DNA of 64,000 nucleotides, from the sequence record PQ741806.1. One strand, written 5' to 3'. The notes beneath the pieces are model-generated. The model was not told where the DNA came from. It searched no databases and saw nothing but the letters and a program-made list of their open reading frames with translations. This DNA is from Pseudomonas phage Pa_AttikonH10. Below are positions 30,886 to 32,352 of this stretch, piece by piece (the first letter of the stretch is position 1; every line of letters begins with the position of its first letter). Both the position numbers and the translations under genes were made by a program.

Positions 30886-32352
30886 TTAAACAGCAACTTT
30901 ACCAGCAATGTGTGGATGATATTCATAGTTCTCGATAACAAAATCATCTACACCAATTTCCCGAATATCTTTACCAATAGCTTCTTCTTTAAAACGGATG
31001 GTAGGTAGAACCTTCGGTTCACGAGTTAATTGAAGATCAGTTTGTTCTTGGTGGTTAGAGTAAATATGTACATCACCACCAGTCCAGATAAACTCTTCAG
31101 CAATCATATTCATTTGGTTAGCTAACATATGGGTCAGCAGACTGTAGAACGTGATATTAAAAGGTTTTCCTAAGAAAGTATCACAAGATCTTTGATAGAG
31201 TTGGCAACTCAATGCACGTTTAGGAACACCATGTTGATCCAGCCATTCTACTACTGCTTCATCTGTAGCCTTTTCATAACCACGACAGACACGCAGAAGT
31301 GCTTTAACCTGCTCAGCACTATCGAATGGAGGTTGACCACGAGTAATCTCACCACTAATCTTATCATGATAAGCATCAGCTTCGAACTGGGTTTGGTCTA
31401 GAGCTTGCACTCGTTCATCTACGGTCAGTTCACGGGTCCAGAACTGAATAAATGCGTGGCAAGGTGGGAGTGCCTGCTCATCAATAAGATGTGGCGCCCA
31501 TGCACAAACAATGATCCGACGAGAATCCGGGTTGGTGCGAAGTTGATCGATGATGTCTTGGATTTGGTCGATACGTCGAGTAACCACGCATCGATCGGTT
31601 TCCATGGTTGTACCTGGGATATCCGCCACGAAGTCAAAACCACGCTTCTCATAATCAAACCACTCATATTTAGGGATTACACGAGTGTCTTCAAGATTAC
31701 GCCATGTCTTACCGTAAACAGCACCTAGATCGCCGCCGACCAGACGCTCTGGTTCTTTATGCATCAAAGCACGATACAGTCGCTTGTTATATTCAGCACG
31801 AATACCTTCAGGATTTTTGGCTTCATCGAACCCTTCAGTAGCGAACCTATTCCACGACGTTACGCTAACTCCAATGATGTATTGGATTTCCTCACGGTTA
31901 ACTGGATATTCATCCCAGAAGGCCTGAATAGTCTCTGGAGTCATACCCGACTCGAATTCCGCTACAGTCTCAATGAATGGAGTAGAGTCATCGTTCATAC
32001 AATGTAAGTACATTACGAATGGGGCACCAATGAGGGCAGTTACTGCTTTAAGAACGGCCTCATCGGTCATCGGCTCATATACTGCGGTTTCAGGTTTAAC
32101 CCACTCGTTCCAGATGCGTACACCATTAGCGATCAGGTAATCCACCTTAGTATCACCTGACAGCATCCAGAACAATTCATGAATTACAGAAGCTAGATGA
32201 ATCTTCTTGGTGGTTACAACTGGTAGCCGATTATTACGCAGACTATAACGTTCTTGTTGACCAAACATGCTCTGAGTACCAGTACCAGTACGGTCACCTT
32301 TATGTACACCGTGTTCTTTAACTAAACGGATTGAATTAAGATATTGTTCCAT
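30886..32352 (-). CDS. thyA: thymidylate synthase (ThyA) family enzyme with three large insertions (488 aa)
   Basis: Collinear with E. coli ThyA: DRTGTGT; VTTKK.HL.S.IHEL.W; catalytic PPCHAF; LSCQLYQRSCDTFLGKPFNITFY (Asn retained); WTGGD.H.YSNH; C-terminus HPHIAGKVAV. Insertions of about 120, 35 and 70 aa follow the IWNEWV, YGKTWR and QFW segments. Confidence 0.8.
   Translation of the reverse strand: MEQYLNSIRLVKEHGVHKGDRTGTGTQSMFGQQERYSLRNNRLPVVTTKKIHLASVIHELFWMLSGDTKVDYLIANGVRIWNEWVKPETAVYEPMTDEAVLKAVTALIGAPFVMYLHCMNDDSTPFIETVAEFESGMTPETIQAFWDEYPVNREEIQYIIGVSVTSWNRFATEGFDEAKNPEGIRAEYNKRLYRALMHKEPERLVGGDLGAVYGKTWRNLEDTRVIPKYEWFDYEKRGFDFVADIPGTTMETDRCVVTRRIDQIQDIIDQLRTNPDSRRIIVCAWAPHLIDEQALPPCHAFIQFWTRELTVDERVQALDQTQFEADAYHDKISGEITRGQPPFDSAEQVKALLRVCRGYEKATDEAVVEWLDQHGVPKRALSCQLYQRSCDTFLGKPFNITFYSLLTHMLANQMNMIAEEFIWTGGDVHIYSNHQEQTDLQLTREPKVLPTIRFKEEAIGKDIREIGVDDFVIENYEYHPHIAGKVAV

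Follow-up and report, generated by a model that had tools for sequence, protein, structure and literature searches.

What role do the extra parts play in a nearly double-size version of a highly conserved and much-studied enzyme? This question is raised by a thymidylate synthase (TS) gene in a 64,000-nucleotide stretch of Pseudomonas phage Pa_AttikonH10 (PQ741806.1; hereafter the window, 64 kb of a genome of roughly 280 kb). Its product has 488 amino acids (aa), compared with 264 in Escherichia coli ThyA. The original prediction, made from the sequence alone, described a ThyA-family enzyme with three large insertions and offered two roles, namely a decorated synthase of deoxythymidine monophosphate (dTMP) and a hydroxymethylase of deoxyuridine monophosphate (dUMP) feeding a thymidine hypermodification pathway. 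According to our analysis, the protein is best read as a dTMP synthase of the ordinary kind with accessory modules that are autonomous and non-catalytic, and we put the probability of this reading at roughly 0.75. The gene and its annotation as TS were already known, while the architecture of the inserts, their mosaicism, and their paralogues in cis and in trans were described in no paper that we found and appear to be new.

The thymidylate synthase core

The coordinates first given for the gene proved correct; the strand, which had been left unstated, is the minus strand, and the plus-strand reading of 30886-32352 is riddled with stops. The open reading frame (ORF) divides into four core blocks and three inserts (ins1, ins2, and ins3), listed here from the N-terminus, with residues of the E. 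coli enzyme marked Ec:

30886..32352, minus strand: TS coding sequence (CDS), 488 codons plus stop, ATG start, uninterrupted in the ORF list; orthologue of phiKZ gp235
32098..32352, minus strand: core block 1, residues 1-85 (Ec 1-84, by phmmer), with R21 in DRTGTGT, E59 (Ec E58), and the folate-contacting I80/W81/W84 (Ec I79/W80/W83); key columns invariant in 95 homologues
31738..32097, minus strand: ins1, residues 86-205, about 118 extra residues; in the 'small domain' of TS, a module of about 120 aa with a predicted alpha/beta fold
31699..31737, minus strand: core block 2, residues 206-218 (Ec 87-99), GGDLGAVYGKTWR, with the catalytic Y213 (Ec Y94); G207, L209, and Y213 invariant in the 95-homologue alignment
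31579..31698, minus strand: ins2, residues 219-258, about 33 extra residues; predicted beta-alpha-beta unit in the interface loop (Ec 100-110)
31432..31578, minus strand: core block 3, residues 259-307 (Ec 107-155), with R278/R279 (Ec R126/R127) and the nucleophile C298 of PPCHAF (codon 31459-31461); invariant columns
31216..31431, minus strand: ins3, residues 308-379, about 70 extra residues; predicted three-helix module in the hairpin Ec 155-158
30889..31215, minus strand: core block 4, residues 380-488 (Ec 158-264), with Q387/R388/S389/D391 in QLYQRSCD, N399 (Ec N177, uracil selectivity), H429/Y431, and the C-terminal tail I482...V486-A487-V488, which reads HIAGKVAV; columns invariant or nearly so

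The protein matched PF00303 in separated stretches with E=1.9e-92 and 309.6 bits (cut-off 24.3), and it passed the NCBIfam equivalog TIGR03284 (294.9 bits, cut-off 108.35). Because the match is broken up by the inserts, the scores for the PRK01827 sub-models stayed below cut-offs that are very high. A phmmer search against all PDB sequences laid E. coli ThyA (264 aa) on the ORF as the four collinear blocks, with approximately 55-60% identity within them, and the insertion sizes of about 120, 35, and 70 residues given in the original prediction were correct. All the motifs it had named, namely DRTGTGT, PPCHAF, QLYQRSCD, FLGKPFN, and the C-terminal KVAV, were found in the core. What it had missed, besides the autonomy of the inserts, was the identity of the enzyme as a known gene product. 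At the DNA level, the TS gene is 99.9% identical to those of phages fnug, KTN4, and W10-2 and 98.4% identical to phiKZ PHIKZ235, which is already annotated 'thymidylate synthase'; the window thus belongs to the genome of a phiKZ-like jumbo phage (Chimalliviridae), and its orientation is the reverse of that of the phiKZ record.

Across the 95 homologues, R21, E59, W81, W84, Y213, R278, R279, C298, and H299 (Ec R21, E58, W80, W83, Y94, R126, R127, C146, and H147) are invariant, as are R388, S389, D391, N399, H429, and Y431 (Ec R166, S167, D169, N177, H207, and Y209), and the C-terminal I482, V486, and A487 are nearly so. These residues include the Cys nucleophile with its acid/base network (C298, H299, E59, and Y213, for Ec C146, H147, E58, and Y94) and the arginines binding the dUMP phosphate together with the uracil-selecting asparagine (R21, R388, R278, R279, and N399, for Ec R21, R166, R126', R127', and Asn177). 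The folate site is likewise present as I80, W81, W84, D391, F398, and Y431 (Ec I79, W80, W83, D169, F176, and Y209). All TS-specific catalytic and cofactor-sealing residues are thus kept. An AlphaFold2 (AF2) model built on the 95 homologues reached a mean predicted local distance difference test (pLDDT) of 95.1 and a predicted template modelling score of 0.90. The modelled fold matched E. coli TS with a Foldseek E-value of 1.7e-28 and a target-normalised template modelling (TM) score of 0.95, and Foldseek with the full model returned canonical TS structures only.

Judged from these residues and the fitted sequence models, the enzyme chemistry is most likely ordinary. The protein would catalyse the folate-dependent ThyA-type step in which dUMP and 5,10-methylene-tetrahydrofolate yield dTMP and dihydrofolate. 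The reaction would take place outside the phage nucleus, in the infected cell's cytoplasm; the TS of PhiPA3 fused to green fluorescent protein was kept out of that nucleus (PMC9067925). Antisense knock-down of phiKZ gp235 had a weak effect on plaque formation (PMC12571901). The 'decorated dTMP synthase' among the two roles first offered is therefore the one supported by sequence and predicted fold, since the core has every ThyA feature that was looked for.

Position, predicted fold, and constraint of the inserts

The roughly 225 additional residues would form three folded surface modules inserted in frame. Ins1, a small-domain element after the W80/W83 helix, is flanked by W-N-E-W and G-D-L-G-x-V-Y-G and is modelled as a mixed alpha/beta unit with pLDDT >90. 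Ins2 is modelled as a beta-alpha-beta meander in what is called the interface loop of E. coli TS (residues 100-110), a loop that carries an insert in human TS as well (PMC4661567). It carries the motif EDTRvIPK..W.dYE.RGF.FV.DIPGt...tDRCVvT and is the best conserved of the three, nearly core-like. Ins3 occupies the beta-hairpin after the catalytic Cys, between the catalytic-Cys strand and the R166 strand; it starts with LTxxER, ends with LDxxxxPK/R, and is predicted to consist of one long helix and two short ones. Throughout the model pLDDT exceeded 86, so that every insert is predicted to be ordered.

The same insert architecture was present in at least 36 sequenced phiKZ-like genomes and dozens of metagenomic homologues. 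In codon comparisons with phage Churi and one metagenomic relative, several of which had saturated synonymous divergence (dS), the ratio of nonsynonymous to synonymous divergence (dN/dS) was 0.14-0.31 for ins1, 0.07-0.10 for ins2, 0.22-0.28 for ins3, and 0.04-0.07 for the core. Because these values are well under 1, the inserts appear to be translated and constrained. We conclude that they are real and under purifying selection and, according to the model, folded.

The TS genes of related phages are hotspots for mobile elements, as the introns and inteins found in them indicate. In Wadjak 1 (L002, OP310983.1; 2655-3815), the gene is split by a group I intron (RF00028, 69.4 bits) with a homing-endonuclease ORF at the junction between the codons corresponding to R388 and S389. 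The TS genes of OMKO1 and NK1 are split in the same way, and L014 carries a GIY-YIG/I-TevI-like endonuclease at this site. Furthermore, many TS homologues in the database are exon-1 truncations ending at R388|S389. Inteins were found in the homologues P0045 (796 aa) and P0099 (681 aa), which contain the Hint domain PF07591, the splicing domain PF14890, and the LAGLIDADG domain PF14528. Together with the Wadjak 1 intron, they served as positive controls for the intein and intron tests. In the window, alignment with the Wadjak 1 exons located the corresponding site, which is empty:

31186..31191 (about 31188/31189), minus strand: empty group I intron homing site at the R388/S389 codon junction

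Given such relatives, it was reasonable to suspect that the apparent inserts were artefacts, that is, unrecognised introns, inteins, or frameshifts fusing separate genes. Nevertheless, an Rfam scan of window positions 30000-33000 gave no intron match, and Pfam scans of the whole TS protein and of the separate inserts found no Hint, intein-splicing, or LAGLIDADG/HNH domain, in line with the earlier claim that the inserts lack intein and homing-endonuclease hallmarks. The frame is single and continuous, the architecture is identical across the phiKZ-like genomes, the inserted segments are conserved at the protein level (dN/dS <0.31) and confidently modelled, and the true intron site lies elsewhere in the gene. 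The artefact explanation, which the original prediction had itself named as what could undo it, is effectively refuted already.

Modules in cis and in trans beside thyA

Two of the checks proposed along with the original prediction, namely separate profile searches of the inserts and an AlphaFold model, were run. The latter is described above, with all three inserts predicted to be ordered. In the former, Pfam and PHROG scans of each insert separately gave nothing significant, the sole match being ins3 to DUF1869 with E=0.008, under the cut-off. Profiles of ins1 and ins3 matched PDB sequences at chance level (E >=0.18), no resemblance to ins1 in sequence or structure could be detected in any PDB chain, the TS of Lactobacillus casei and Enterococcus faecalis included, and Foldseek of the TS model against BFVD returned the TS of 201phi2-1 alone. 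A helix-turn-helix was suspected in ins1 ('IQYIIGVSVTSWNRF') and was dropped, as no profile or fold search backed it. The start of ins1 resembles the end of ins3 in a 'TDEAV' stretch, where the ins3 hidden Markov model (HMM) gave a weak second match; this likeness is too short to interpret. A literature search on the inserts of gp235 found nothing. From these searches, ins1 and ins3 have no relatives outside the TS lineage of the phiKZ kind.

Inside that lineage, relatives exist as separate genes. An exhaustive HMMER search of 1.84 billion representative proteins with an ins1-only profile matched 10 proteins, of which 3 were free-standing and the others embedded in TS. The free-standing ones were P0122 (106 aa), P0123 (111 aa), and P0124 (229 aa), the last with an ins1-like N-terminus and an unrelated C-terminal half. 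A follow-up search added four further free-standing ins1-like ORFs of 107-112 aa (P0127-P0130). They are collinear with ins1 of the window and share the motifs GG.(F/W)V(L/M), FW..YP, DR...I..V, and E(C/Y)..R(L/I)(H/Y)R..F. A tblastn search with P0129 matched the stretch encoding ins1 in every phiKZ-type TS gene (E=3e-7, with 30% identity across 109 aa) as well as a free-standing ORF of the cultured Pseudomonas phage Viktualia. In a neighbour-joining tree, unbootstrapped and built from short, fast-evolving sequences, the free-standing forms made up a single clade nested among embedded ins1.

All ins1-like ORFs with readable context lie directly upstream of a TS gene, with stop and start abutting or overlapping. 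In L008 and L010, the ORF is followed by a different TS type of 330 aa that has neither ins1 nor ins3. In L006 and L014, it is followed by a phiKZ-type TS with its own ins1, and the arrangement of L014 was found on 18 contigs. The ins1-like ORFs have stayed open over approximately 55% amino-acid divergence in at least seven clusters at 90% identity, with start position and TS coupling kept. Between L008 and L010, for example, the ins1-like ORFs are 42% identical, with a nonsynonymous difference proportion (pN) of 0.38 and a synonymous one (pS) of 0.73, and the adjoining TS proteins are 90% identical.

Ins3 has free-standing counterparts on the other side of the gene. In L008, the second gene downstream of TS is an ORF of 147 aa with a tandem pair of ins3-like units (ins3 HMM, 51.9 bits), the second of which is 55% identical to ins3 of the TS P0019; in a set of 5.8 billion proteins, a word-index search of limited sensitivity returned only this ORF itself. 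In L006, the ins3 HMM detected a 45-aa ins3-like ORF right after TS. The arrangement is most fully developed in Viktualia (L016, PV037725.1; 4001-6068), where an ins1-like ORF of 112 aa (CDS0062), a TS of 460 aa, and an ORF of 116 aa with two ins3-like units (CDS0064; 56 bits) are translationally coupled, the last overlapping the end of the TS gene by 4 nt. The Viktualia TS has its own ins1, ins2, and a short ins3. Taken together, these comparisons indicate that ins1 and ins3 are autonomous modules found in cis or in trans beside thyA.

The three inserts occur in differing combinations among homologues. Ins2 and ins3 are present in most chimallivirus TS, including the 335-345-aa forms of Salmonella SPN3US-like, Erwinia, and E. 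coli Goslar phages, whereas an ins1 of 104-140 aa is confined to the group of Pseudomonas phages phiKZ, PhiPA3, Phabio, and 201phi2-1, with shorter elaborations elsewhere. Ins3 comes in two size classes, with about 40 extra residues in the short one and about 70 in the long one. The enlarged TS proteins P0006, P0008, P0085, and P0094 are labelled Pseudomonas aeruginosa or Salmonella enterica in NCBI; they most likely come from jumbo-phage genomes inside bacterial assemblies and are not cellular genes.

The modules and the core have diverged unequally from the window sequence. Churi is 96% identical in the core, 37% in ins1, and 90% in ins3, and its dS relative to the window is 2.2 in ins1 and 0.4 in the core. 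PS119XW is 68% identical in the core and 85% in ins3, and P0003 is 87% identical in the core and 76% in ins1, with an ins3 of the short class. Such unequal identity and dS point to cassette exchange by recombination, not to uniform divergence, and by these comparisons ins1 and ins3 are hypervariable, mosaic, and swapped between phages as cassettes. Only nine codons separate ins3 from the intron homing site downstream of it, which makes it plausible that co-conversion during intron homing drives the exchange of ins3.

Competing explanations and biological meaning

The enlarged enzyme could instead be a hydroxymethylase acting on dUMP (or the corresponding cytidylate, dCMP), in which the inserts reshape the folate site and water instead of hydride attacks the exocyclic methylene intermediate. 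Ins1 is indeed inserted directly after the folate-contacting helix, phages commonly carry TS-family hydroxymethylases (PMC8989533), and the window also encodes a dCTP deaminase and an extended Tmk-like kinase. On the other hand, in E. coli TS the folate site is closed off for hydride transfer by the C-terminal tail, and T4 dCMP hydroxymethylase (T4 dCH) has no such tail and uses S94/D145 with ordered waters, and D179 for cytosine (PMC6400193). Here the tail is conserved, and the equivalents of S94, D145, and D179 are V212, L295, and N399, the first two being of the V93/L143 type. None of the T4 dCH-based signatures (missing tail, S94/D145, Asp at Ec N177) was thus found, although the comparison is less stringent for a dUMP hydroxymethylase as the residues come from a dCMP enzyme. 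The core identity to E. coli ThyA and the passed equivalog cut-off point the same way. Thymidine hypermodification requires 5-HMUDK, the DNA kinase for 5-hydroxymethyluracil (5-hmU), and aGPT-Pplase-type transferases, usually encoded near the hydroxymethylase gene (PMC8989533), and a search of the TS neighbours and of all 44 ORFs in the window with a length of 150 aa or more found no gene for a 5-hmU DNA kinase, aGPT-Pplase/AADT, pyridoxal phosphate (PLP) enzyme, or radical S-adenosylmethionine (SAM) enzyme. Furthermore, purified phiKZ virion DNA was cleaved in vitro by HindIII, EcoRI, KpnI, NcoI, and Cas9 (10.1101/370791), and our literature search found no nucleoside analysis of that DNA. 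The two neighbouring genes cited in favour do exist, at 11 and 30 kb from TS, and the dCMP deaminase also cited in the original prediction was not recovered: the 44 ORFs and the flanking small ORFs gave no Pfam match to it, and its zinc motif HAE...PCxxC was absent from all six frames of the window. The neighbour-gene argument is therefore weak. Because the tail and residues are of TS type, pathway genes are absent from the window, and phiKZ DNA can be cut, the hydroxymethylase reading is unsupported, and we consider it very improbable.

The main rival holds that the inserts are neutral passengers, tolerated loop expansions or recombination debris, and that the free-standing ORFs are functionless leftovers. 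It draws on the much faster evolution of ins1 and ins3 compared with the core and on the group I introns with GIY-YIG or other endonucleases, and the inteins, hosted by the TS gene in relatives. It also draws on two loci. In L008, the different TS type sits between ins1-like and ins3-like ORFs, as if the centre of an older gene had been replaced. In L011 (6001-8914; also L012 and L013), a decaying TS paralogue lies directly upstream of a 596-aa TS, which itself has an extra large in-frame insert at the ins1/ins2 site with the homing-endonuclease-like motif W..M..RC.NP....Y..YG.KGI.V...W, and a GIY-YIG ORF (4029-4583) lies near these TS genes. Against this, all inserts and the free-standing ORFs alike have dN/dS values well under 1, ins2 is conserved nearly at core level, and all inserts are predicted with high confidence to be ordered. 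The free-standing ORFs have remained open, constant in start position and tight TS coupling, despite their divergence, and they coexist with TS genes that already hold their own ins1. Selection, ORF boundaries, and coexistence argue against pure debris, without proving a function in trans, and we regard the debris explanation as unlikely.

Several points weigh against an enzyme with accessory modules. The AF2 model is a monomer and is silent on where the modules lie relative to the active site and dimer interface. The literature search found no activity assay or biochemical data for gp235. The degenerate L011 paralogue (371 aa) keeps ins1 and ins2 but no longer has Y94, the RR pair, the catalytic Cys, QRS, or N177, and free-standing paralogues could be by-products of duplication or of gene replacement driven by homing endonucleases. 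In the window itself, the ins1 and ins3 HMMs found the cis copies only and no copy in trans. The saturation of dS and the lack of bootstrapping in the ins1 tree belong here as well. Nevertheless, an accessory role is favoured because the modules stay with thyA whether fused or separate, because the catalytic apparatus is untouched, and because the phage T4 enzyme offers a precedent for surface inserts. In an ordinary dTMP synthase with accessory modules, the modules would act on or with TS through partner docking, stabilisation, or regulation, leaving the reaction chemistry unchanged; in related jumbo phages, ins1 and ins3 are also encoded as separate coupled ORFs, ins1-like upstream and tandem ins3-like downstream of TS. 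A more specific proposal is that ins1 and ins3 represent two families of small proteins or domains, not described before, that are dedicated partners of phage TS, supplied in cis within TS surface loops, as in phiKZ, or in trans from co-translated ORFs on either side of thyA, as in Viktualia; we put it forward tentatively, as possible but doubtful.

Known systems offer partial parallels. E. coli ThyA (EC 2.1.1.45; PDB 2TSC and 1TYS) shares the fold, the catalytic, dUMP, and folate residues, and the tail with the phage enzyme, but the phage modules occur in no solved TS structure. The TS of L. casei and E. faecalis (316 and 315 aa) have a 50-residue small-domain insert at the ins1 position, from W(D/N)EW to GDLG.VYG. 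Human TS has a shorter small-domain insert at the ins1 site and an interface-loop insert at the ins2 site. Compared with the E. coli interface loop, phage ins2 has about 33 more residues, and it has its own conserved motif and predicted fold. Nothing comparable stands at the ins3 site in the aligned TS of E. coli, L. casei, and humans, and this site is not covered by any solved TS structure.

Among phage enzymes, td of T4 is likewise a ThyA with lineage-specific surface insertions. The T4 enzyme has 286 aa in total and its inserts are short; Finer-Moore and colleagues reportedly proposed in 1994 that they mediate contacts in a complex synthesising deoxynucleoside triphosphates (dNTPs), and free-standing paralogues of them are not known. 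Chu and colleagues are reported to have found that a group I intron with its homing endonuclease targets the td gene too, at a similar place in the conserved YQRS region; td has its intron, whereas the TS gene of the window has none. Hydroxymethylases of the T4 gp42 and SPO1 gp29 type share the superfamily, the first chemical steps, and phage coding with the window TS, but the traits of gp42 (no tail, the Ser94/Asp145 water network, and Asp179) are absent from it. The bifunctional dihydrofolate reductase (DHFR)-TS of protozoa and plants is a precedent for a TS partner that is part of the same polypeptide or encoded by a separate gene depending on lineage. That partner, however, is a known enzyme fused end to end, whereas the phage modules are small and lie inside TS surface loops.

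The surroundings of the gene contain the following further features, including the two genes that had been brought forward as metabolic neighbours:

32352..32552, minus strand: 66-aa ORF immediately upstream of TS, phiKZ gp234.1, its stop overlapping the TS start by 1 nt
43656-44225: dcd (dCTP deaminase), 11 kb from the TS gene
62140-63198, minus strand: Tmk-like kinase, 30 kb from TS, PF02223 at residues 8-202, with a C-terminal extension of about 150 aa that has no Pfam match
2675-4201, minus strand: BCS1-like AAA+ ATPase (BCS1_N and AAA)
47265-48365, minus strand: second AAA ATPase
51387-53498, plus strand: SNF2/ResIII helicase
23843-24499, minus strand: HD-domain phosphohydrolase

The ORFs directly flanking TS gave no Pfam match. 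Gp234.1 sits in the slot held in other phages by the free-standing ins1-like ORF and is unrelated to ins1, having no match to the ins1 HMM either. Further upstream, a 302-aa ORF (33949-34857, minus strand) has a weak N-terminal match to SspB, the stringent starvation protein B (PF04386, 6e-5, under the cut-off), and an 'SspB-like' gene is also syntenic upstream of thyA in Viktualia. Directly downstream of TS there is a sharp mosaic boundary (29100-30845, minus strand): the sequence is 99.4% identical to phiKZ as far as the thyA 3' end, and identity falls to 71% beyond it, in the gp236 homologue. The 5' part of phiKZ gp237, an RlaP-type nucleotidyltransferase, is replaced by an unrelated 170-aa ORF (29918-30430), and the 3' part remains at approximately 80% identity, split into small overlapping ORFs (about 29125-29560).

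For the biology of these phages, the results correct a tempting over-interpretation, as there is no evidence that phiKZ-like phages make 5-hydroxymethyldeoxyuridine or hypermodified thymidine with their TS enzyme. What they have is a nearly double-size form of the enzyme in which the extra parts appear to be folded, selected, and swapped, and also to occur as separate genes coupled to thyA. If ins1 and ins3 are dedicated TS partners, their fast divergence and cassette exchange would reflect a TS-centred interaction that is under conflict or lineage-specific, candidates being the assembly of a cytoplasmic dNTP-synthesis complex in nucleus-forming phages or escape from a TS-targeting factor of the host or of a rival phage. 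Cultivable systems are at hand in phiKZ for the cis form and in Viktualia for the cis-plus-trans form. Should the modules prove to be TS partners, they would represent a natural case of domain insertion and fission in an enzyme scaffold, and may offer a clue to how nucleus-forming jumbo phages organise or protect nucleotide synthesis in the host cytoplasm.

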